Source of the DNA: an uncultured Planctomycetia bacterium
Lineage (GTDB): Bacteria; Planctomycetota; UBA8108; UBA1146
Assembly (NCBI GenBank): GCA_964412635.1
Contig: CAYPPQ010000001.1
Span: forward strand, 46,382 to 110,381
Length of the DNA stretch: 64,000 bases
Reading direction: 5' to 3'
The notes beneath the pieces are model-generated. The model saw only the letters and a list, made by a program, of their open reading frames with translations, did no database searches and was not told the DNA's origin. A program made the translations under genes and the position numbers. Shown here one piece after another: positions 1,224 to 16,523 of this stretch (position 1 is its first letter; every line of letters starts with the position of its first letter).

Positions 1224-1880
1224 ATGAAACTGCTAAATCTCCTGGCGATTTCGCTGGCAGCCATCGTCATCATCTTCCTGTGGGCGAGTTCATCGCAACA
1301 ACGACAGATCGATGACCTGGAGAAACAGCAGGATGATCTCGTCGAGGAGGATGCTCGTCTGGCGAGAGAAGTGATACGAATTGACGGAGTCGTCGGCGGA
1401 CTCGAGTCGGAGGTGGAGGGAGTCAAGGGAGAGATGACTGAACTCGGTGGCAAGGTTGAGTCCGCCGTCGAAGCGATCGACCAGACCGCAACAGATCTCT
1501 ACAACGAACTCACTGAAAGCAAAGAAGCACTCGGCGAAGAACTGACCAGAATCAGTGAATCGCTCGGCGAGGAGCTGGAGAGCAACCGCTCAGCACTGGA
1601 CCAGGAACTCGAATCGATCATCTCGCGGATCGCCACCGAGTTGGAGCAATTCGAGAAGGAACTGACCCTCTCCGCCTCTCAGCAGCAGGCACTCCTCGAT
1701 CAGATCAAGCAACTGGAGTCTCAGTTACAGACCGCTCATGACAACCATGTACAGCTGGTTCAACGCCAGCAGCAAACCGATCGCGCCGTCGATCAGCTGG
1801 CCGCCCAGCAGCAGCAGATACTCGATGCCTTGATCCGTCTCGAACAGCGAGGAAGTGACACTCCCGACCCCAGAAGATGA
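1224..1880 (+). CDS. membrane-anchored coiled-coil protein, hypothetical
   Basis: There is an N-terminal signal/TM segment (LLNLLAISLAAIVIIFLWA) followed by about 190 aa of E/Q/L-rich heptad-like sequence (ELxxxLxxELE repeats). No enzymatic motif is present. Confidence 0.55.
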   Translation: MKLLNLLAISLAAIVIIFLWASSSQQRQIDDLEKQQDDLVEEDARLAREVIRIDGVVGGLESEVEGVKGEMTELGGKVESAVEAIDQTATDLYNELTESKEALGEELTRISESLGEELESNRSALDQELESIISRIATELEQFEKELTLSASQQQALLDQIKQLESQLQTAHDNHVQLVQRQQQTDRAVDQLAAQQQQILDALIRLEQRGSDTPDPRR

Positions 1881-1969: not shown

Positions 1970-4900
1970 ATGTCCGACAATCCGCTGAAACTCGACAAGA
2001 AGCAGATCCGGGAGCGATTCCTCGCCCTGATGCAGAAGCGCATCCTGGTTCTGGATGGAGCGACCGGCACCGCCCTGCAGGATTGTGATCTGACCGCCGA
2101 TGATTTCGGAGGAGAAGATCTCGCAGGGTGCAATGAGAATCTTGTACTCACCCGCCCCGATGTCATCCGGACCGTCCATCGTCAATACCTGGACGCTGGA
2201 GCCGATTGCATCGAGACCAATACCTTCGGTGCCACCCCGCTGGTTCTCGATGAATACGATCTGGGGGATCGCGCCGAAGAGATCAACATCGTTGCCAGCC
2301 AGCTCGCCAGGGAAGAAGCGGACCAACATTCCACCGCAGATCGTCCAAGGTGGGTACTGGGTTCGATGGGCCCCACCACCAAGACCCTTTCGGTGACTGG
2401 AGGGATCGACTTCGACGAGCTGAGAGAACACTTCAGGGTCCAGGCTCGGGGATTGATGCGGGGGGGCTGTGACATCCTGCTGCTGGAAACGGTGCAGGAT
2501 ACCCTCAACCTGAAGGCCGCTCAGTTCGGGATCGAAGCGGCCTCCGATGACCTCGGATACTCGAGACCGGTCGCCATCTCCTGCACCATCGAGCCGATGG
2601 GAACGATGCTCGCAGGACAGGCCATCGATGCCTTCTACACCTCCGTCGAACACTTCGAGCCGATCTTCATCGGAATGAACTGCGCCACTGGACCACGATT
2701 CATGACCGACCATCTCCGAACCCTTTCCGAGATGTCGGCATTTCCCGTGTCCGTCTACCCCAACGCAGGTCTTCCCAACTCGGAGGGTCAATACGAGGAA
2801 ACCGCCGAGATTCTCGCCGACCACATCCAACCGTTCCTCGACAACAAGTGGATCAATGTCATCGGTGGCTGTTGCGGGACCACACCTGAGCACATTCGCA
2901 CCCTGGTGGAGAGGGTCGAAGGGGTCGCCCCTCGGCAGTGGCAATCCACCGATCAGGCTCTCATCTCCGGGATCGAGCTGGTCCAGATCGATGAAGACAC
3001 GAGACCTCTGGTGGTCGGGGAAAGAACCAACGTCATCGGGAGTCGACGCTTCAAGAAACTGATCGCTCGCGATGAGTTCGAGAAGGCAGCGGAGATCGGT
3101 CGCAAACAGGATCGTGGTGGAGCACACATCATCGATGTCTGCATGGCAGACCCCGATCGCGAGGAACAGGATGACATACTGCGATTCCTGCCGATGCTGA
3201 ATCGAATGACCAAGGCTCCGCTGATGATCGACTCCACTGATTCACGAGTCATCGAGGAGGCCCTCAAACTGTGTCAGGGAAAGTCGATCATCAACTCCAT
3301 CAACCTTGAAGATGGAGAAGAGCGATTCGAGTCGGTAGTCCCCCTCGCCCGCAGTTTCGGTACCTCTCTGGTGGTGGGCTGTATCGATGAAGATCCCGAT
3401 GATGGCATGGCCGTCACGGTGGAGCGCAAACTGGAGGTGGCTGAACGCTCACACCAGTTACTGACGGAGAAGTACGGTGTTCCCGAGTGCGATATCATCT
3501 TCGATCCTCTCGTATTTCCCGTAGGAACGGGAGATGAGAAGTACAAGAGTTCCGCCGCAGCCACCATCGATGGCGTTCGTGCCATCGCTGAACGATTCCC
3601 CCACTGCCATACGATCCTTGGAATCAGCAATGTCTCCTTCGGACTGCCACCGGCGGGCAGGGAGGTATTGAACTCGGTATTCCTCTATCACTGCGTTCAG
3701 GCGGGTCTGACGATGGCCATCGTCAACTCGGAGAGAATGGATCGCTATGCGAGCATTCCCGAGGTGGAGAGGGAACTGTGTGAGGATCTGATCTGGCAAC
3801 GTACGGATGATCCCGTGGCGCGGTTCACCGAGCATTTCCGCGGCAGGAAAGTAGCAGCGGAGGGTCAATCGCCACTGCTCGACCTTCCGATCCCCGAGCG
3901 ACTCGCCCGCAACATCATCGAGGGAACCAAGGAAGGCATCGAGGAAGCACTCGAAATCGCCCTGACGATTTACGACGCGCCACTCGAGGTGATCAATGGA
4001 CCACTGATGAATGGCATGGCGGAGGTAGGGCGACTCTTCAACAACAATGAACTGATCGTGGCAGAAGTCCTGCAGAGTGCAGAGGCGATGAAAGCAGCGG
4101 TCGCTTTCCTCGAGCCTCACATGGAGAAGAGTGACATCGCTTCGCGCGGCAAGATCCTGCTGGCGACCGTCAAGGGTGATGTCCACGACATCGGAAAGAA
4201 TCTGGTTCAGATCATTCTTTCCAACAATGGATTCGAAGTGGTCGATCTGGGAATCAAGGTCGCGCCAGCTCAACTGATCGATGCGGTCAAGGAGCATCAG
4301 CCCGACGCCATCGGACTCTCGGGGCTACTGGTAAAATCTGCCCAGCAGATGGTGGTGACTGCCGAGGACTTGCAATCGGCAAGCATCGAACTTCCGATCC
4401 TGGTCGGAGGTGCTGCTCTCTCCGAGAAATTCACCGCTCTCAAGATCCAGAAGGCGATCAATTCCACGGTGATCTATGCTCGCGATGCCATGGATGGATT
4501 GAGGATCGTCAATGAGATCCTCGACGAGACCCGACGTGATGACTTCATGACCGAGGTGAGGCGCAGTCAGGAGCGGATCATCAGCGGGGGATCCACCGCA
4601 ACGAGCAGTTCCGTTGCCCAGATCACACTTCCTGACCGGTCTCCTGCCATCACCATCATCGAGTCGGTGCCGACGCTGCCCGATACAGAACTGCACATCG
4701 CAACCCAGGTCGATCCGAGGGAGATTTTCCCTCTCATCAATCCTCAGATGTTGTACGGGAGACACATGGGTCTGCGCGGTAACTTCGAGAAGAAGCTCAA
4801 GGCTGGCGACAGCAAGGCTCTCGAATTGCAGACCCTGATCACTGAACTGCTCGAGGAAGTCATCCAGCGCGAGTTGCTGATGCCAAAGGCGATGTGGAGA

Positions 4901-5485
4901 CACTACCCGGCCAGCTCCACCTCGAATGAGATCGTCATTCACGATCCAGTCTCGCTGGAACCGCTCGAGAGAATCTCCTTTCCCCGTCAGAGGAAATCGC
5001 CCCATCGTTCCATCTGTGACTACATCCTCCCTGCAGACGATGACGGTCGACCCCGTGATCACCTGGCGATGATGGTGACCACTGCGGGCTCGGGAGTCCG
5101 CAACCAATCTCGTGCATGGATGCACGCCGGGGAGTACCTCAAGTCACATTCGTTGCAGGCACTCGCAGTGGAGATGGCTGAAGGACTGGCAGAACGAACC
5201 CACCGACAGATTCGCGCCAGCTGGGGCCGCCCGGATCCCGAGACGATGACCCGCATGGAGATGTTCCAGGCCAAGTACCCCGGCAAGCGTTATTCCTTCG
5301 GGTATCCCGCCTGCCCCGATCTCTCCTCGCAGGAGGTGATCTGGAGACTGCTTCAGCCGCTGGAGCATCTTGGAGTGGAGTTGACCGAAGGATTCATGAT
5401 GGATCCAGAGGCTAGCGTCTCCGCACTTGCTTTCCATCATCCGGATGCGAGTTACTTCGGAGTCGGTGGCCGGGAAGAAGTCTAG
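1970..5485 (+). CDS. metH: cobalamin-dependent methionine synthase (5-methyltetrahydrofolate-homocysteine methyltransferase)
   Basis: An 1171 aa four-module protein. It has the Hcy-binding barrel (LDGATGT...NCATGP...GGCCGTTPEHI), the pterin-binding module, the B12-binding GDVHDIGKNLV motif, and the C-terminal AdoMet reactivation domain. Confidence 0.95.
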   Translation: MSDNPLKLDKKQIRERFLALMQKRILVLDGATGTALQDCDLTADDFGGEDLAGCNENLVLTRPDVIRTVHRQYLDAGADCIETNTFGATPLVLDEYDLGDRAEEINIVASQLAREEADQHSTADRPRWVLGSMGPTTKTLSVTGGIDFDELREHFRVQARGLMRGGCDILLLETVQDTLNLKAAQFGIEAASDDLGYSRPVAISCTIEPMGTMLAGQAIDAFYTSVEHFEPIFIGMNCATGPRFMTDHLRTLSEMSAFPVSVYPNAGLPNSEGQYEETAEILADHIQPFLDNKWINVIGGCCGTTPEHIRTLVERVEGVAPRQWQSTDQALISGIELVQIDEDTRPLVVGERTNVIGSRRFKKLIARDEFEKAAEIGRKQDRGGAHIIDVCMADPDREEQDDILRFLPMLNRMTKAPLMIDSTDSRVIEEALKLCQGKSIINSINLEDGEERFESVVPLARSFGTSLVVGCIDEDPDDGMAVTVERKLEVAERSHQLLTEKYGVPECDIIFDPLVFPVGTGDEKYKSSAAATIDGVRAIAERFPHCHTILGISNVSFGLPPAGREVLNSVFLYHCVQAGLTMAIVNSERMDRYASIPEVERELCEDLIWQRTDDPVARFTEHFRGRKVAAEGQSPLLDLPIPERLARNIIEGTKEGIEEALEIALTIYDAPLEVINGPLMNGMAEVGRLFNNNELIVAEVLQSAEAMKAAVAFLEPHMEKSDIASRGKILLATVKGDVHDIGKNLVQIILSNNGFEVVDLGIKVAPAQLIDAVKEHQPDAIGLSGLLVKSAQQMVVTAEDLQSASIELPILVGGAALSEKFTALKIQKAINSTVIYARDAMDGLRIVNEILDETRRDDFMTEVRRSQERIISGGSTATSSSVAQITLPDRSPAITIIESVPTLPDTELHIATQVDPREIFPLINPQMLYGRHMGLRGNFEKKLKAGDSKALELQTLITELLEEVIQRELLMPKAMWRHYPASSTSNEIVIHDPVSLEPLERISFPRQRKSPHRSICDYILPADDDGRPRDHLAMMVTTAGSGVRNQSRAWMHAGEYLKSHSLQALAVEMAEGLAERTHRQIRASWGRPDPETMTRMEMFQAKYPGKRYSFGYPACPDLSSQEVIWRLLQPLEHLGVELTEGFMMDPEASVSALAFHHPDASYFGVGGREEV

Positions 5486-5505
5486 GTGCGACCACCTGGA
5501 ATTGA

Positions 5506-8500
5506 TCAACGCTCCCTCAGTGTGACCTGAATCTCCACTGTCGCCTCTTCTCGTTCGATCACCAGCACGACAGTGTCACCAGCTTCCAGTTCCTTCAGCA
5601 GGTTCGAGTATCCCCTCAGGTCCTCGACGACGGAGCCAGCGAGAGAAATCAGCCTGTCGCCAGCCATCAGTCCGGCCAGTTGTGCCGGAGAGTCGTCCAC
5701 CACTCCCTCGATCCTGACTCCGGGACCCGTGTCTGCGAAATCAGGAATGGTTCCGAGGAACACCCTGCGCCCTGTAACGGGAGGGGTAGATCTGCCGCCG
5801 TTTCCATCTGCTGCGGTCAACGTCGAGGTCAGAGGATCGACTCGATCCGACAGGTACAGCAGAGCCTCTCGCAACCATGTTGCGACCTGCACCATCCCCT
5901 CTGCATCGACCTTGTCTGCCGTATCACCCGGACGGTGATAGTCATCGTGTGGACCCGTGGTCAGCTGGATTCCCGGTACCCCGAGCTCGTGAAAAGGAAC
6001 CTGATCGGACCCACCTGGATCATCCTTGACCGCCGTCGATGCGACACCGGTGGTGAAACCGATCCCACGGGCGATGTGAATCCACTCGGTGGCGGTTCCG
6101 GTTCCCAGTGCCAGCAGCCTCCCCTGCGAGAGGCGCCCGACCGCATCGATACTGATCACCGAGATGGCATCCCTGGCAGGCCACTGTTTCATCGATTCGA
6201 CGTAGCGGCGAGCCCCACGTAACCCCCACTCCTCGGCACTGGTGGCAACGAAGATGACGGTCCGTGCTGGACCATGGGTTGCCACCATCAGCCTGGCGGT
6301 CTCCAGCATCACTGCCACACCGGAGGCGTTGTCGTCTGCTCCCGGGTGAATCTTGCCTTCATTTCCCGCCCTGACATCGGGCCAACCGCGACCGAGGTGA
6401 TCGACGTGAGCAAGGACCACGACAGATTGACCCGACAGAGCAGGATCGTTGCCAGGAATGACTCCGATGACATTTCGAAGCCCCACACCCTTCTTGGTCC
6501 GATCGTCGAGTTCATCCTCGCTCCAGGAATCGAAGAAACTTCCTTCCGGCGCACCCGGCTGCAGACCGATCTCGGAAAACCGATCCGCCACCCACCGGGT
6601 CGATTGATGGAGACCTTCTGAACCATTCCCCCGTCCCTCCCGTTGAGGATCGGCGAGCCAACGGACATCGGAAATCATCCGATTGGCATCGAGTACGGGA
6701 CCCGGTCGCGCCAGAGGCTCTCGCGCATCTTCCGGCGCAGTAATCGTGATCCCCGCTGCCGTCCAGGAGAGGGGGGAGGTTTCAGTTCCCCATTCACCCT
6801 TGGCCACGTTGGTCGGTTCATCCCCTTCAAATAACAGATAGGAGTACTTTCCATAGTGCGGCAGTTTTCGCGCCAGACCGGGAATCGCTTCCTCCTTGTA
6901 ACAACGGATCAAACCCACCGTGAGATCTTCGTCAGCGGGATGCCGTGCCACCTGGATCCCCGAATGATTCCACTGGCCAAGGCCCGGCTTTTCATGCGGC
7001 GGTTTCATCGTCGGAAGTATCCATCGGGAATCAGTCAGAGTGAATCTCCCCTGACTCCCCTTGTTGAGGACCGCCTTCCGCAACCTCTCACTCGCCACAC
7101 CCATCGTCGTCTCGCCGAGGATCCACACCGCCCGATCGGGCGGGATCTGTTCCAGTTCGGTGTCGAGGACGATGCGAACATCTCCATCGGCGGCCCACGT
7201 TTCGGCCAGCGCTCGCCACGCCTCGAGCCTCGGACTCATCGAGGGCAGGATGATCAGCTGTGATGAAGCACCGAAGATGTCGCCAATCGTCGGCGGAGTC
7301 TCAGAACGATCGAGTCGTCGAAACACATCGAAGAAGGGGTCGACTCTCACCGCAGCCACGGAAGCGGGAACCTCGAGAGACCTGTGACGGGGAACCGTGT
7401 CCTCGGCGATCGCAAAGGTGAGTGTCTCTTGCTGCCACTTCGATTCACCAGCGATCTGGTAGTAAACCGGTAAGTGAATCGGGAATGGATCGTGCTCCTG
7501 CACCTGTGAAACCTGGATCGTCGACAGTTCATCCGAGGCTTCCACCTCGAGCAAGATCTCCGGAGCTCCAGTTCTGCCAACCCAGGCGTTCATCCACCCT
7601 CTCAGATCGGTCTTTGCACTCTTCCCCAGCGTCACCGCAAGATCATCGAAAGATGCGTTCCTGTACCGGAAGGACGAGTAGAACTCGCGGAGACCGTTCC
7701 GGAACACCTCGTCGCCAAATTGACGACGAATCATGTGCCAGATCATCAAGCACTTGCCATATCCCACCGCCTCGGTGGCTCCTGAATGACGGCTGCGAAA
7801 CTCACTGAGTGGAAAGTCGAGGCCATCCTGTACATAGGAGCCAAACTTCTTCAGAACATCACGTCGATACTCCGCCCCCCGACCGTCTCCTTCTTTCATC
7901 AGATGATCGGCGAGATAAGCGGTCAATCCTTCGCACCAGTTGCCCGAAGCGTAATCGACGTACACCGAATTCCCCCACCAGTTATGCAGTACCTCGTGGG
8001 GATACGACGACCTGAGGATGAAAGGAAGACGGATCACCTGCGGTCCGAGCAGGGTGAAGGATGGCATCCCATAGCCGCTCTCCCAGAAGTTCTCCACCAG
8101 TGCAAACTTCTTGTAGGGATAGGGACCGATCAGCCGATCGTACATCTCCACGTACTGAATCGTCGCTTCCAGATACTTCTGGGCCAGGTTCGAATCAGGT
8201 TCTCGCAAGAAGACCTGAACCTCCACCAGCGGAGTACTGTTCTTGTACTCATGAAATCTCGCGGCGATCAGAAACACTTCCTCTTGTAGATGCTCGCCGA
8301 CACACTCCCAGCGGACCCGGGATCGCTCGCTGTCGACATCGGTCTCGACCCGACTTCCCTGACTGACCGCAACCCAGCCCTCCGGAAGGTCGACTTCAAG
8401 GGTAAAGGTGAACTTCACACCATCGGGGATGGGGAGCCATGATGTCGCCCCCCCCAGGAACACTCCTGCCTCCTCGATGGTTCCCGGTGTCGATGAGAAG

Positions 8501-8892
8501 GAACGCCCAGCTCCGGAACCGACCTGCCCCAGTGCTTCCCGGATGATCCCCGTTGCCGAGATCACCACCCGTTGATTGACCGCCCCATCCTCGGGAAGGG
8601 TTACCCGCCAACGCCTCCTGTCGACGGGCCGCTGGGGGTCAAGGCTGGCGCCACTTCCCTGCTCCAGATCCTCGATGAGGGTGAGCGATCCCGGCGATTC
8701 CAGTTGCGGGGTGAGGGCAGAATGCAGCGGGAATTCGTACTGGCGACCGAACATCTCGCTTGAGACCTGCCAGTGGATCACCCCTGTCGAGGGCTGTAGA
8801 GACACCTGGGCGTCAACATGGGGGTTCCAGCCAGGCACCTCCGGGGAAGGAAGGCAGCACAGCAGGGTGTTCAGTAACAAGGACAAGTACAT
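5506..8892 (-). CDS. secreted multidomain metallopeptidase: M1-like (HEXXH...E gluzincin) domain + M28 aminopeptidase domain + C-terminal PDZ
   Basis: The M1-like motif is HEVLHNWWG...WCEGLTAYL. The M28 set is HVDHLGRG, HPGADDNASGVAVMLE, SAEEWGLRG, ISIDAVG and DDYHRPGD. The PDZ is GVRIEGVVDDSPAQLAGLMAGDRLISL. The ORF track starts at 8925, but the ATG at 8892 (MYLSLLLNTLLCCLPSP signal peptide) has a GGAAAGG RBS 6 nt upstream, so I prefer it. Confidence 0.8.
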   Translation of the reverse strand: MYLSLLLNTLLCCLPSPEVPGWNPHVDAQVSLQPSTGVIHWQVSSEMFGRQYEFPLHSALTPQLESPGSLTLIEDLEQGSGASLDPQRPVDRRRWRVTLPEDGAVNQRVVISATGIIREALGQVGSGAGRSFSSTPGTIEEAGVFLGGATSWLPIPDGVKFTFTLEVDLPEGWVAVSQGSRVETDVDSERSRVRWECVGEHLQEEVFLIAARFHEYKNSTPLVEVQVFLREPDSNLAQKYLEATIQYVEMYDRLIGPYPYKKFALVENFWESGYGMPSFTLLGPQVIRLPFILRSSYPHEVLHNWWGNSVYVDYASGNWCEGLTAYLADHLMKEGDGRGAEYRRDVLKKFGSYVQDGLDFPLSEFRSRHSGATEAVGYGKCLMIWHMIRRQFGDEVFRNGLREFYSSFRYRNASFDDLAVTLGKSAKTDLRGWMNAWVGRTGAPEILLEVEASDELSTIQVSQVQEHDPFPIHLPVYYQIAGESKWQQETLTFAIAEDTVPRHRSLEVPASVAAVRVDPFFDVFRRLDRSETPPTIGDIFGASSQLIILPSMSPRLEAWRALAETWAADGDVRIVLDTELEQIPPDRAVWILGETTMGVASERLRKAVLNKGSQGRFTLTDSRWILPTMKPPHEKPGLGQWNHSGIQVARHPADEDLTVGLIRCYKEEAIPGLARKLPHYGKYSYLLFEGDEPTNVAKGEWGTETSPLSWTAAGITITAPEDAREPLARPGPVLDANRMISDVRWLADPQREGRGNGSEGLHQSTRWVADRFSEIGLQPGAPEGSFFDSWSEDELDDRTKKGVGLRNVIGVIPGNDPALSGQSVVVLAHVDHLGRGWPDVRAGNEGKIHPGADDNASGVAVMLETARLMVATHGPARTVIFVATSAEEWGLRGARRYVESMKQWPARDAISVISIDAVGRLSQGRLLALGTGTATEWIHIARGIGFTTGVASTAVKDDPGGSDQVPFHELGVPGIQLTTGPHDDYHRPGDTADKVDAEGMVQVATWLREALLYLSDRVDPLTSTLTAADGNGGRSTPPVTGRRVFLGTIPDFADTGPGVRIEGVVDDSPAQLAGLMAGDRLISLAGSVVEDLRGYSNLLKELEAGDTVVLVIEREEATVEIQVTLRER

Positions 8893-9027
8893 CCACAGCC
8901 TTTCCCGATTCCTGGCGTGGATCATACCTGCTGAACCACATCCGGTCCATGTTGACTCGGCCCTCAGAAAGCCTTCTCATCCTGTTCGTGGCAGCGGGGA
9001 TACTCTGCCACAGACGGAGAGTTCCAG

Positions 9028-11433
9028 ATGACCAAGATCGACCAGCTGTTTCTGACTACTGCACGCAAATTGGGCCTCATCGATGACGATGGCCTCAAGC
9101 AGATTGCCACCATCGTCGAAGATGGCACGGGAGATGCTGCAGATACCGCTGTTGAACTGGGTCTGATTTCAGCGGAGCAATCCAGCAAGTTGATCTACAA
9201 CATCGAGACCAAGGTACCCCCGCAAAACATTCCTGGCTTCGAGGTGATTTCTCACATCGGTAGGGGTGCCACCAGCACCGTGTGGAAAGCGCGACAGGAA
9301 TCCCTCGGGAAGACGGTCGCTCTGAAAGTGTTTTCCACCTCGGTCACCAAGAAAACAAAACCTGATCAGTTGATCTCCGAAGCACGAAACGCTGCTCGTC
9401 TCAATCATCCCCACATCGTGCATGCCATCGATGCGGGGATCTCTGACGGTTGCTGCTGGTTTGCGATGGAGCTGGTTGAAGGTGAAACACTCCATCAGAA
9501 ACTGAAGCGCAGAGGAGTCCTATCGGAGAGAGAGCTGGGAGAATTCGCCCTGTGCGTCACCCAGGGATTGGCCCACGCTCACTCCGCAGGCCTTCTGCAC
9601 CGGGATCTCAAACCTGGCAACATCCTCATCTCCGAAGATGGCGTTCCCAAGATCACCGATCTGGGCCTGGCTCTCGCTGAAGAAGAGGCGGGTGATCTCG
9701 ATTCCGGAGAACGCCGCAAGGGAACTCCTCACTACATCTCGCCCGAGCAGATCCGTGGAGACAACATCGATGCGAGGAGTGATCTGTACTCCCTCGGCGC
9801 CACTCTTTATCACTGTGCGACCGGACGCCCACCCTTCCAGGGCAAGAGCACCAAGGAGATCCTGAAAAAACACCTCCATGAAGAACTGATTCCCGTCGAT
9901 ACCCTGGCCAACAGGTCGTCACCGATTCATGAGATCATCGAGAAGTTACTGTCAAAAACTCCTTCCGATCGATTCTCCAGTGCAGAAGAGGTCATCGAGG
10001 CACTCAACAACGCCAGTGTCGATAAAGCGCATGAATCCGTCAGTGCTCCCCGAAGCAAGAGACGGGTGTCTTCCACCGTTGCTGGCAAGACTCCCGTTCG
10101 AAGGGTTGTCTCCGGAGTTTCTCGTGGTTCGTTGCAGAGCAAGAACACCCTGATCTCGAAGATCGGAGTCGGTGTAGGGATTGCGATCTCGATGATGATG
10201 GTCGTCTCGGCCGCTTCCAAGGCGAATCAGGAAGCTCCCGGTTTCAGTGAACAGATCGCCAGTCACCGCGATGAGATCTATCAAAAGAAGATCAAGTTGC
10301 GTATGGACGCCACAGTCGTCGACCATGAGCGAGAAGAAGCCAATGCTGAGACAATGCTCAAATCGATCCTGTCACAGGATCAAGATATCCAGGTCAGAGC
10401 ATTGCAGCAGGCACTGAAATCCCACTGTGCAACCAGGGCCTCCGCTGACATGAGCGATGCTCTGGACCGGATCCGGGGTGACATCGTTCGCTCCAGACAG
10501 GAGGACGGTCGTACGGTGCTGGCGGAGGCGACCGCTCTCGCCAACGAGGGGAAATTGTGGCCAGCGGTCAAACTTCTTGACGACAGACCCAGTTCTGCCC
10601 GCAAGGATCAAGATCTCAACAATGACATCGAAAAACTACTCGCCAACTGGGAAGCGGAAATCGACTCGAGATTTGCAGTGGATTTCCAGAAGATCGGTTT
10701 CCACCGCGACCGTCGGGAGTTTTCAGAGGCTCTCGCCTTGATCGATGAAATCGAAGGCTATGCCGACCCCGATAACGCAGAGGACGCCACCAAGATGCGG
10801 GACGTCATCATCCAGACCCGGGAAAGGTTGGCAATCGAGGAGTCGAAGCGTCGATTGACCGAAGAAAGCAGCAAGTATCGTGAGCTGTGGGCGAACTACC
10901 AGGAGAAAGCGCTCGCACGCGACATCAAGGGAATGATCAGTCTCGCTGTATCTCTCGATGCAGAACTGGTAGTGAAGGAAGTGAAGGACCGACTTGAATC
11001 GGACCTTCTCGCCTTCAGTCTCCTCGATGGCTTCATCAAGGAGGCAATTCAGGAGCTGGTCGAGAAGGGTGAGAGCGGCAAGGAGGTCGCACTCGAACGA
11101 ATCCCGCTCGGCTCCAGCACCAAGAACAGGATCGATCGCGGCGTCGTCGATCGTGTCGATAGCCAGAATGTCTGGATCAAGCTTTCATCGGAAAACGCCA
11201 TCCTGCCGATGAAAATCATTGATATCACCGACGCTTTCCTCTTTCAGCAGGTTGCAGATCGACATGGCAAGAGCAGTGTCGAGTACCGGATCCCACTCGG
11301 ACTCCTGAGCATGTACCGGGGGCTTTTCGATGTTGCAGCGGAGAACTACCGGATCGCCGAGGAGAAAGGGCCCCGTCCCGACACCTGGATCGAGAAGCTC
11401 GAGTGGGTCAAGAAGAACGCCCGGATGCGCTGA
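9028..11433 (+). CDS. Ser/Thr protein kinase with N-terminal GSPII_E_N/MshEN-like domain, one TM helix and a large C-terminal extracytoplasmic domain
   Basis: Kinase subdomains are present: GRGATSTVWKA, ALKVF, HRDLKPGNIL, DLGLA and SPEQ. The N-terminal 60 aa (ARKLGLIDDDGL...VELGLISAEQ) resemble the T2SS-E N-domain. The TM helix is GVGVGIAISMMMVVSAA. Confidence 0.9.
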   Translation: MTKIDQLFLTTARKLGLIDDDGLKQIATIVEDGTGDAADTAVELGLISAEQSSKLIYNIETKVPPQNIPGFEVISHIGRGATSTVWKARQESLGKTVALKVFSTSVTKKTKPDQLISEARNAARLNHPHIVHAIDAGISDGCCWFAMELVEGETLHQKLKRRGVLSERELGEFALCVTQGLAHAHSAGLLHRDLKPGNILISEDGVPKITDLGLALAEEEAGDLDSGERRKGTPHYISPEQIRGDNIDARSDLYSLGATLYHCATGRPPFQGKSTKEILKKHLHEELIPVDTLANRSSPIHEIIEKLLSKTPSDRFSSAEEVIEALNNASVDKAHESVSAPRSKRRVSSTVAGKTPVRRVVSGVSRGSLQSKNTLISKIGVGVGIAISMMMVVSAASKANQEAPGFSEQIASHRDEIYQKKIKLRMDATVVDHEREEANAETMLKSILSQDQDIQVRALQQALKSHCATRASADMSDALDRIRGDIVRSRQEDGRTVLAEATALANEGKLWPAVKLLDDRPSSARKDQDLNNDIEKLLANWEAEIDSRFAVDFQKIGFHRDRREFSEALALIDEIEGYADPDNAEDATKMRDVIIQTRERLAIEESKRRLTEESSKYRELWANYQEKALARDIKGMISLAVSLDAELVVKEVKDRLESDLLAFSLLDGFIKEAIQELVEKGESGKEVALERIPLGSSTKNRIDRGVVDRVDSQNVWIKLSSENAILPMKIIDITDAFLFQQVADRHGKSSVEYRIPLGLLSMYRGLFDVAAENYRIAEEKGPRPDTWIEKLEWVKKNARMR

Positions 11434-14762: not shown

Positions 14763-16523
14763 TCAGCAGCCCGAGGTCGGGCTCAAGCAGTCGAGTGGAT
14801 CGGTATCGGTCGGATCAAGTCCACAAGCATCACCTGGTGCTGGAGGTGCCGCTCCGCCGGAGAAGAGGAAACCAAGCAGGTAAACCGCATCTCCGATGTT
14901 CATCGATCCATCGTCATTGGTGTCCGCAGAGTCATCACAAGAAGGTGCCACTCCTCCGGAGAAGAGGAAACCGAGCAGACTCACGGCGTCACCGATATTG
15001 ATGGATCCGTCAGAGTTGACGTCACCACGACGGAACTGGATTCCACCGACATTGCAGGAAGGATCCGCGAAGCAATCGGGATCATCGCAATCTGCCAGGG
15101 AATCTCCATCGTCGTCGATTCCGTTGGTGCAGTCCTCAACAGGTCCAGTGGTCGGTGGCATTCCGCTGTGGTAGAGCCTGCAGCTGATTCCCCCGAACTC
15201 GAACTGAGCACTGTAACTCTCGTTGATTCCATCGTTGTCAGCATCGACGTCCGGATTGATTCCGAAGGTGCCGAGCAGATCGACGAGATTCCCTGCGAAG
15301 GGTGGTGGTGCCGGCTGAGTGAGCAAGAACGCCTGGGTCAGGAATGCATCTGTCGGTGTACTCTGGAACTCGTACACACCGGACAAGGTTCCCGGATAAA
15401 AATCGGCTTCCACGGTCAGATTGTTGAGTGGGATACCCGAAACGTAAATCGTTCCCGGACCCGCAATCAGGTGTCCCGCCTCGAGGGTTCCACCCGGGAA
15501 GCTTGAAATCGGATCTCCCGTGACCTGGTCGTAGTCGAGAGAATCGATGACGAACTCGTTAAAGCCATCCCCGTTGTTGGTCGTATCTCCATCCAGATCG
15601 AAACCACCGAATGCGTTCAGGGTGATGTTGTCATCATCCGAGTAGGTGGGATCATCCAGATCTGCAACTTCGAGCAGGAACGGGAAGTTCTCGAGATTAC
15701 TGGCGAGCAATGCATTGAGTCCATCGGTGATCGTCGGATTGGATCCCAGAATTCCACCGGTCACCACCTGCGAGGTCGCAACAAATCCATCGACATCAGG
15801 ATGGTACGAGTAGAACAGGTCGCAGGAAATTCCACCGAACTCGAATACTGCCGTGTAGCTTTCGTTCACTCCATCCCCATCCGCATCGTGATCGGGAAAG
15901 ATGCCGAAAGAATCGAGGGTATCGACCAGGGTGCCGGCAAAGGGCGGAGGCGCTGGCTGTGTGGCCAGGAATGCCTGGGTCAGGAATGCGTCGGTCGGCG
16001 TGCTCTGGAACTCGTAGACTCCAGTCAAGGTACCCGGGGTGAAGTCCGCCTCCACGGTCAGGCCGTTGAGGGGAATCCCCCCGACGATGATCGTTCCTGG
16101 CCCTGCGGTCAGGTGACCGTCGACGATATCCCCGTCAGGAAAGCTGGAGATCGGCTCCCCGGTGGTGGAATCGAGGCTGTAGGGGTCGATGACGAACTGG
16201 TTGGCTCCCGAGCCATTATTGGTCGGATCGCCGTCGATATCGTATCCCCCGAAGGTGTTCAGGGTGATGTTGTCGTCGTTGGTGTAGGTCGGGTCGTCGA
16301 GACCTTCTACTTCCAGCAGAAATGGAGAAGTCAGAAGGCGCTCGGCAAGCAGTGCATTCAGTCCCTCTGTGATCGTTGGATTTGATCCAAGGATGCCACC
16401 TACCACTACCTCTGAGGTGGCCACGAATCCTTGCTTGGAAAACTGGGCATTGGCGTCACTGCTCGGAAGGAGCAGCAGAAAAAGAAACACAGGTGTAAAA
16501 GTGCGAACAAAAAGGCGATTCAT
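14763..16523 (-). CDS. secreted protein with two 214-aa tandem repeat modules and a C-terminal Cys-rich linker plus double dockerin-like repeat
   Basis: There is a signal peptide, MNRLFVRTFTPVFLFLLLLPSSDANA. Two repeats begin GFVATS(E/Q)VV..GGILGSNPTIT and end EFGGISC. The C-terminus has two copies of GDVNSDGSINIGDAVSLLGFLFSGG, which is dockerin type I-like calcium-binding sequence. Confidence 0.7.
   Translation of the reverse strand: MNRLFVRTFTPVFLFLLLLPSSDANAQFSKQGFVATSEVVVGGILGSNPTITEGLNALLAERLLTSPFLLEVEGLDDPTYTNDDNITLNTFGGYDIDGDPTNNGSGANQFVIDPYSLDSTTGEPISSFPDGDIVDGHLTAGPGTIIVGGIPLNGLTVEADFTPGTLTGVYEFQSTPTDAFLTQAFLATQPAPPPFAGTLVDTLDSFGIFPDHDADGDGVNESYTAVFEFGGISCDLFYSYHPDVDGFVATSQVVTGGILGSNPTITDGLNALLASNLENFPFLLEVADLDDPTYSDDDNITLNAFGGFDLDGDTTNNGDGFNEFVIDSLDYDQVTGDPISSFPGGTLEAGHLIAGPGTIYVSGIPLNNLTVEADFYPGTLSGVYEFQSTPTDAFLTQAFLLTQPAPPPFAGNLVDLLGTFGINPDVDADNDGINESYSAQFEFGGISCRLYHSGMPPTTGPVEDCTNGIDDDGDSLADCDDPDCFADPSCNVGGIQFRRGDVNSDGSINIGDAVSLLGFLFSGGVAPSCDDSADTNDDGSMNIGDAVYLLGFLFSGGAAPPAPGDACGLDPTDTDPLDCLSPTSGC
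15159..16430 (-). repeat. direct tandem duplication, 2 x 642 bp, inside the dockerin-protein gene
   Basis: Protein repeat 1 (aa 32-245) and repeat 2 (aa 246-455) are about 75% identical. Long DNA stretches are conserved, for example ctgggtcaggaatgc(a/g)tc(t/g)gtcgg(t/c)gt(a/g)ctctggaactcgta at about 15341 and about 15971. Confidence 0.8.

Follow-up and report, generated by a model that had tools for sequence, protein, structure and literature searches.

A widespread, uncharacterised family of predicted exported bacterial proteins that joins an M1-like zinc-hydrolase head, an M28 peptidase head and a PDZ domain in one chain

We analysed 64,000 nucleotides of DNA from an uncultured Planctomycetia bacterium (GenBank assembly GCA_964412635.1, contig CAYPPQ010000001.1, positions 46,382 to 110,381 of the forward strand; this whole stretch is hereafter the window). 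One long open reading frame in it, at 5506..8925 on the minus strand, is predicted to encode an M1-like zinc-hydrolase head, an M28 peptidase head and a PDZ domain in a single chain. The frame is uninterrupted over its 1139 residues, ends in a stop codon at 5506-5508 and has two candidate start codons, ATG at 8925 and ATG at 8892. L080, a relative with 76% identity, has an in-frame TGA immediately 5' of the homologous ATG that begins MYL..., and the Shine-Dalgarno sequence AAGAGGAG is found upstream of this ATG. Most public annotations of the identical protein give it 1128 residues, and one JGI record gives 1139. For these reasons, the true start is likely to be the ATG at 8892, giving 1128 residues, which agrees with an earlier interpretation made from the letters alone (the sequence-only reading).

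Pfam matches, judged by curated gathering cut-offs, were found for all three parts: Peptidase_M1 (PF01433) at residues 310-448 (42.9 bits against a cut-off of 27.7, E = 5.7e-11), Peptidase_M28 (PF04389) at residues 818-1018 (129.2 bits against 21.3, E = 2.1e-37) and PDZ_2 at residues 1063-1136 (36.8 bits against 27), with PDZ_6 also above its cut-off (30.1 bits against 27). The Peptidase_M1 match spans profile positions 73-218 only. NCBIfam held no specific model for the protein (TIGR02412 reached 53.6 bits against a threshold of 591) and gave far-sub-threshold partial matches to PepN, one M28 aminopeptidase and HtrA PDZ regions. The sequence-only reading had proposed one polypeptide with an M1-type site, a full M28 set and a C-terminal PDZ domain, and had named hmmscan as the check; the Pfam matches, the motifs read in the sequence and the invariance of their ligands described below all bear it out. 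We also considered M61 in place of M1 for the first head and rejected it, as Pfam returned no M61 match at E <= 1.

The protein begins with a hydrophobic segment that resembles an export signal (MYLSLLLNTLLCCLPSPEVPG; residues ~12-32, 8830..8892 on the minus strand). This segment is retained whichever ATG is used, and its Kyte-Doolittle maximum is 2.36 in a 10-residue window. An equivalent segment was found in 109 of 120 homologues, compared with 0 of 120 for an internal control region, and many homologues have textbook Sec signals with A-x-A sites. If translation starts at M12, the signal has its hydrophobic core and no positively charged n-region. The signal peptide that had been predicted from the sequence is consistent with this export-type N terminus, and we consider the predicted export of the family's proteins to be well supported.

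An AlphaFold2 model built from 63 homologues, with a mean predicted local distance difference test score (pLDDT) of 87.5 and a predicted template-modelling score (pTM) of 0.81, divides the chain into six domains, all on the minus strand. The first is an all-beta, high-pLDDT equivalent of the N-terminal beta-saddle that forms M1 domain I (residues ~35-240, 8206..8823), which superposes on ERAP1/2, IRAP, PSA and F3. It is followed by an M1-like catalytic domain of thermolysin fold (residues ~245-452, 7570..8193) and a beta-sandwich equivalent to M1 domain III (residues ~457-528, 7342..7557). In a Foldseek comparison, the first ~550-570 residues matched ERAP1/2, IRAP and PSA at E ~1e-25. M1 domains I to III are therefore found in the model and by fold comparison; the helical domain IV is absent, and a flavodoxin-like alpha/beta domain takes its place (residues ~547-722, 6760..7287). 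The M28 co-catalytic two-zinc peptidase domain (residues ~745-1030, 5836..6693) and the C-terminal PDZ domain (residues ~1059-1139, 5509..5751) complete the chain, separated by a poorly conserved linker (residues ~1031-1058, 5752..5835) in which pLDDT is 39 at 1041-1050 and below 50 at 1042-1052. The junction between the M1-like and M28 parts (residues 701-750) is modelled at a pLDDT of 85-91 and contains the conserved motifs EPTNVAKG... and REPLAR. Because the junction is modelled this well and the linker before the PDZ domain so poorly, the model agrees with two heads held rigidly together and a PDZ domain that is free to move. A search of solved structures returned no chain that spans more than one module of the protein.

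We also observed a conserved motif, GLARKLPHYGKYSYL, that closes the flavodoxin-like domain (residues 683-697, window 6835-6879, minus strand). It occurs both in fused proteins and in stand-alone modules that comprise the M1-like domains and the flavodoxin-like domain (N modules). The strict form K[LI]P[HR][YF]G is present in 80 of 150 clade representatives, which are the 150 top-scoring hits of a HMMER search that used residues 30-735 as the query. Y691 is 97% conserved.

The M1-like head contains a mono-zinc site that can be read directly from the sequence, H310-E311-x-x-H314-(17 residues)-E332 (7930..7998, minus strand), in which HEVLH occupies residues 310-314. HMMER paired H310, E311, H314 and E332 with the HELAH...E residues of ERAP2 and PSA, opening a gap of one residue ahead of E332. 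A counterpart of the transition-state-stabilising tyrosine was found at Y389 (7759..7761, minus strand), which aligned to the tyrosine of 'ISYSKG' in PSA and 'VSYNKG' in ERAP2, and Y389-G-K391 aligned to Y-S-K-G of PSA. We assessed conservation in 63 full-length homologues and in 146 diverse N modules. The four residues of the zinc site and Y389 are invariant in both sets, and K391, like Y389, is 100% conserved among the N modules. The sequence-only reading had placed the zinc ligands here and allowed that the head might instead belong to M61; the ligands stand, and M61 does not. On these residues, the first head is almost certainly a functional zinc hydrolase belonging to the M1 superfamily.

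The surroundings of this site depart from the M1 signature, which is GXMEN-X22-38-HEXXH-X18-E and in which the glutamate and asparagine of GXMEN hold the N terminus of the substrate (PMC2241622). HEXXH-X17-E, the spacing of the query, was found in 149 of the 150 clade representatives and HEXXH-X18-E in none. GXMEN was likewise absent from all 150, and G[YFW]GM[PA] was present in 134. The place of GXMEN is taken, according to conservation and HMMER alignments, by the invariant segment E278-N279-x-W-E-x-G-Y-G-M-P-S-F-T-L-L-G294 (8044..8094, minus strand). When HMMER aligned the query independently to ERAP2 and to PepN 8T41, the 'ME' of GAMEN fell both times in a gap opposite the query's G-Y-(gap)-G-M-P-S. 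E278 is 100% and N279 98% conserved among the 146 N modules, and the position of the pair, 30 residues before HEXXH, falls inside the canonical window of 22-38 residues. E278-N279 could be a functional stand-in for the glutamate and asparagine of GXMEN. We did not adopt 'ALVEN' (275-279) as the GXMEN counterpart, as the HMMER alignments to ERAP2 and PepN 8T41 pair it with the preceding 'aiPdF' strand.

No other loop of the M1-like head is as conserved as the one at residues 282-290 (ESGYGMPSF; window 8059-8085, minus strand): among the 146 sequences, G284 and G286 are 100%, P288 99% and S289 97% conserved. This loop is also the sole stretch within a domain that AlphaFold modelled with pLDDT below 50, and it may be a mobile active-site gate.

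The sequence-only reading had called both catalytic domains metalloaminopeptidases. Both zinc sites are indeed intact; the X17 spacing and the lack of GXMEN and of domain IV leave the aminopeptidase activity of the M1-like head unproven, and the aminopeptidase label for this head goes beyond the evidence. The same three features, with a flavodoxin-like domain replacing domain IV, make these M1-like modules a distinct, unannotated M1 subclade. They separate the family from the four-domain M1 aminopeptidases (PepN/aminopeptidase N, ERAP1/2, IRAP, PSA and tricorn factor F3), which have X18, GXMEN and a helical domain IV, whereas the proteins described here are in addition predicted to be exported and are fused to M28 and PDZ domains. 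Two precedents resemble the M1-like head in part. M1dr of Deinococcus radiodurans (PDB 6A8Z), an M1 enzyme that is active although it lacks the C-terminal domain (refs 83 and 84 in PMC10343166), is a two-domain enzyme that also lacks domain IV, but unlike the M1-like head it has no domain III or flavodoxin-like domain, and no M28 or PDZ domain follows. GXMEN-less M1 subgroups are known in vertebrate aminopeptidase O and in short actinobacterial M1 proteins (PMC2241622). These share with the family a partial loss of GXMEN upstream of an intact zinc site, and the methionine is retained both in aminopeptidase O and here (M287 in GYGMP). They keep HEXXH-X18-E, however, and occur in other domain contexts, and the likeness described here is one of motif.

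The M28 head carries the motifs HVDHLGRG (840-847), HPGADDNASG (860-869), SAEEWGLRG (896-904), ISIDAVG (924-930) and DDYHRPGD (994-1001). The predicted metal ligands are H840, D865, E899, D927 and H997, with E898 as the predicted general base and D842 in the second shell, and all seven residues are invariant in homologues. H840, D842, D865, E898, E899 and D927 correspond to H97, D99, D117, E151, E152 and D179 of the Vibrio aminopeptidase AAP, and H997 corresponds to the YH motif in an alignment to 2EK8. As the nearest relatives of this domain in both sequence and fold are aminopeptidases, the M28 head is most likely a two-zinc aminopeptidase. Compared with known M28 aminopeptidases (Aneurinibacillus AM-1 aminopeptidase 2EK8, B. 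subtilis YwaD, Vibrio/Aeromonas AAP, Streptomyces griseus SGAP, Legionella LapB and P. aeruginosa PaAP), it is only 20-25% identical, lacks a PA domain or pro-domain, and has an M1-like part before it and a PDZ domain after it. The PDZ domain has an invariant G1069 and a conserved V1070 in its putative carboxylate-binding G-P-G-V loop, and among solved structures it is closest to PDZ1 of DegQ/DegP and to the PDZ domain of RseP.

This architecture is not confined to the window. A search of 5.8 billion clustered proteins found at least 120 full-length homologues (44-100% identity, 1058-1179 residues), every one of which matched PF01433, PF04389 and PDZ, and the identical 1128-residue protein was found on at least 11 independent contigs. 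A genome survey with one genome per GTDB species yielded at least 576 relatives, and we analysed the 79 best loci. The N module and the M28-PDZ part (C module) are contiguous and in frame at 38 of these, 24 have the N module only (~65-720) and 17 the C module only (~745-1139). None of the fused loci in this set comes from a cultured organism; cultured bacteria with single modules are Denitromonas halophila SFB-3, which has a stand-alone N module together with ChaN-PDZ, and Flavobacteriaceae LYZ1037 and LMIT009, which have M28-PDZ. Among the matches listed, the fused form occurs in more than 10 phyla, and these matches include Planctomycetota, Ignavibacteriota/Chlorobiota, Bacteroidota, Acidobacteriota, Nitrospirota, Myxococcota, Desulfobacterota-like lineages, Gamma- and Betaproteobacteria, Eisenbacteria, Riflebacteria and Elusimicrobia. 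The fusion had been thought unusual when only the sequence was read, a view that these numbers do not sustain. Public records name the proteins 'M20/M25/M40 family metallo-hydrolase', 'aminopeptidase N', 'M28 family peptidase' or 'hypothetical protein', each of which covers at most one catalytic domain. The fusion is thus a widespread, uncharacterised bacterial family that is already in databases under generic names, and not a one-off. Its recurrence in more than 120 proteins, at 38 of 79 loci and in more than 10 phyla argues that selection maintains it.

The N module also exists on its own. An exhaustive HMMER search with residues 30-735 returned 8,420 representatives, clustered at 50% identity, at E <= 1e-3, and 1,359 at E <= 1e-30. 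Of the top 150, 103 stand alone, at ~650-800 residues and without an M28 motif, and ~39 have M28, which indicates that the N module occurs more often unfused than fused. In a crude neighbour-joining tree of 146 N modules, fused and unfused tips were intermixed, requiring 25 parsimony changes compared with a mean of 34 and a minimum of 29 after shuffling. This suggests several fusion or fission events, and such repeated fusion or fission would argue for a functional link between the modules.

A further partner was found in some relatives, namely a domain of the ChaN/Tiki superfamily (Pfam Cofac_haem_bdg), a superfamily that includes true proteases (Tiki and RRSP), haem-binding ChaN and erythromycin esterases (PMC6254334). 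One relative of 1827 residues has the order ChaN ... M1-like-M28-PDZ (P0128), and others have ChaN ... M1-like (P0192) or ChaN-PDZ-M1-like (P0236). A ChaN-like region was associated with the M1-like module at 18 of the 79 loci. It lies in one open reading frame with the M1-like module at three (L008, L009 and L035), in an abutting, co-directional gene at five (L013, L017, L034, L057 and L058), in a divergent neighbour at eight (L031, L033, L037, L045, L052, L056, L061 and L062) and near the other side of the gene at two (L019 and L036). The association is common to fused and stand-alone M1-like genes, and all three of the neighbour proteins that we scanned with Pfam (L056, L057 and L013) contain both Cofac_haem_bdg and PDZ. 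The ChaN/Tiki-type partner usually has a PDZ domain of its own. Giant reading frames of ~1,600-2,000 residues from stop to stop combine ChaN, M1-like, M28 and PDZ parts, and hence three putative hydrolase modules, in Phycisphaeraceae, Vicinamibacteria and other metagenome-assembled genomes (L009:4917-10964 (+), L008:6444-11243 (+) and P0128). Single chains of the order ChaN-M1-like-M28-PDZ measure ~1,600-1,830 residues. No ChaN-like sequence was found within the 64-kb window.

Because the M1-like module repeatedly pairs with two kinds of PDZ-bearing hydrolase, these associations are the strongest available hint that it may act on PDZ-recruited substrates. A broader proposal, which we regard as speculative and on balance unlikely, would place the GXMEN-less M1-like module at the centre of a widespread, unrecognised extracytoplasmic peptide-processing system. 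In such a system, M28-PDZ and ChaN/Tiki-PDZ partners would be recruited by fusion or adjacency, PDZ-tethered substrates would pass between mechanistically different sites, and the specificity of the M1-like module would differ from that of classical M1 enzymes.

Within the window, the peptidase gene is convergent with metH (1970-5485). The end of the metH stop at 5485 and the peptidase stop at 5506-5508 are separated by 20 nucleotides, and a terminator scan between the convergent stops found no terminator-like site; coordinates and scan agree on this arrangement with what had been read from the sequence. An 8-bp hairpin, UCUAGGUG-CGAC-CACCUGGA, lies between the stops at ~5481-5500. It lacks a U tract, and comparison with shuffled sequences gave no significance (z = 0.43). 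A Ser/Thr protein kinase gene (9028-11433 (+), 801 residues, Pkinase at residues 71-322) is divergent from the peptidase gene. In 76%-identical relatives, the divergent kinase is kept and the adjacency to metH is lost, with three phospholipid-synthesis genes between the peptidase gene and metH; the kinase adjacency is probably plain synteny. The neighbours are housekeeping genes (CNNM, metH, the Ser/Thr kinase, a MobA-like transferase, a DinG-like helicase and ATP synthase). Two further reading frames, at 14763-16523 (-) (586 residues) and 1224-1880 (+) (218 residues), had no Pfam match at E <= 1e-5. At one acidobacteriotal locus, a gene for an 899-residue double M16 (pitrilysin-type) peptidase is convergent with the homologue (L083:9485-12184 (-)), an arrangement not seen at the other loci examined.

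We consider it probable that both heads are active peptidases and that the protein is exported, to the periplasm or as a secreted protein. The mechanism that we propose would involve a single exported chain with three zinc ions in two independent active centres. The flexibly tethered, HtrA-type PDZ domain would bind peptides or unfolded fragments, probably through their C termini or hydrophobic stretches, as in DegP/DegQ, and this capture would raise the local substrate concentration at the compact M1-like/M28 body. The M28 site would trim N-terminal residues, and the M1-like site would cut the same substrates with a different, complementary specificity, possibly with no need for a free N terminus. 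The outcome would be a fuller extracytoplasmic breakdown of peptides, for nutrient scavenging or for clearance of proteolytic fragments.

Several observations weigh against this reading. The lack of GXMEN leaves the type of activity of the M1-like head uncertain. Neither the window nor the loci of relatives revealed a functionally informative neighbour or a conserved operon partner, and literature searches for the architecture found no description or characterisation of any member. When the two halves are split, they are never neighbours within +-8 kb (tblastn with N 1-735 and C 740-1139, 79 loci), and an obligatory partnership is therefore not demonstrated; we accordingly dropped Rosetta-stone adjacency as an argument for coupling. 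The 'processive peptide-trimming machine' envisaged in the sequence-only reading is a hypothesis that is not directly supported; many genomes encode the two halves as proteins of their own, from genes that do not lie side by side. True cooperation or processivity between the heads is conceivable, and we think it doubtful.

A serious, if tentative, alternative is a division of labour in which the M1-like head would be an oligo- or endopeptidase, or would act on blocked or modified N termini, and the M28 head would trim the resulting fragments. The absence of GXMEN in 150 of 150 representatives points this way, as do the gap at the 'ME' of GAMEN in the ERAP2 and PepN alignments, the loss of domain IV, which closes the M1 substrate chamber, and the modelling of the invariant loop 282-290 without confidence. 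However, M1 subgroups without GXMEN exist, including aminopeptidase O (PMC2241622), and E278-N279, at the canonical spacing, could replace the glutamate and asparagine of that motif.

We consider it improbable that the protein is a polyprotein precursor, exported and then cleaved at 720-745 or before the PDZ domain to free M1-like and M28-PDZ enzymes. Both halves are autonomous genes in many genomes, with boundaries at ~720 and ~745, and proteolytic maturation is described for some M28 enzymes, such as PaAP (PMC8208579). A disordered, cleavable linker would nevertheless look different from the conserved junction, with its pLDDT of 85-91, and the pTM value (0.81) points to a defined arrangement of the whole chain.

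There is only a slight chance that the activity of the M28 domain is that of a glutaminyl cyclase or of some other M28/M20-fold hydrolase that is not a peptidase. Glutaminyl cyclases of the M28 fold are mono-zinc enzymes in which part of the five-ligand set is missing, but all five co-catalytic ligands are invariant here, including H840 and D927. The profile scores also favour aminopeptidases, at 9e-25 for 2EK8, 3e-20 for YwaD and 1e-16 for AAP compared with ~4e-9 for glutaminyl cyclases. A pseudo-enzyme role for one of the catalytic domains, limited to scaffolding or to substrate binding, is most improbable. The M1-like head does depart threefold from the M1 signature (X17, no GXMEN, no domain IV), but all catalytic residues of both sites are 100% conserved in sequences that are otherwise 32-50% identical, which argues for selection on catalysis. 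The possibility that two genes were merged by a frameshift or misassembly, which the sequence-only reading had allowed for, is refuted by the continuous reading frame, the identical protein on at least 11 contigs and the same in-frame architecture in at least 120 homologues and at 38 loci.

The picture that we favour, of two active heads on one exported chain, has partial parallels in known systems. A survey of microbial PDZ proteins lists a PDZ and M28 'Zn-dependent exopeptidase (ZEP)' family as functionally uncharacterised, and the survey text that was searched mentions no M1 domain in the same chain (PMC6411480). The C-terminal half of the protein (~745-1139) has this ZEP layout, and M28 with PDZ alone is found in Gemmatimonadota and Flavobacteriaceae. 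DegP/DegQ, RseP, Prc/Ctp and M61 glycyl aminopeptidase with PDZ share the combination of an envelope protease and a PDZ domain, but their proteases are of serine or M50/M61 type, in contrast to the M1-like and M28 domains here. Somatic angiotensin-converting enzyme contains two M2 domains in one chain and is thus similar in having two full zinc-peptidase sites per polypeptide. It duplicates one family, whereas the fusion described here joins two unrelated folds and mechanisms, a mono-zinc gluzincin and a di-zinc M28 enzyme.

If both heads are active, the family would place two mechanistically unrelated zinc peptidases on one exported chain, and we know of no characterised bacterial enzyme with this arrangement. 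The family spans many phyla of environmental importance (among them Planctomycetota, Acidobacteriota, Bacteroidota, Gemmatimonadota and Nitrospirota), and extracellular peptide hydrolysis is a key step of organic-nitrogen turnover in such bacteria. Because public records name only one catalytic domain, peptidase inventories undercount the active sites of these proteins. The specificity of the M1-like clade would be a test of what GXMEN and domain IV contribute to M1 enzymes. The protein offers an experimentally tractable chain with two mechanisms and an entry point to the association among M1-like, M28-PDZ and ChaN-PDZ proteins.

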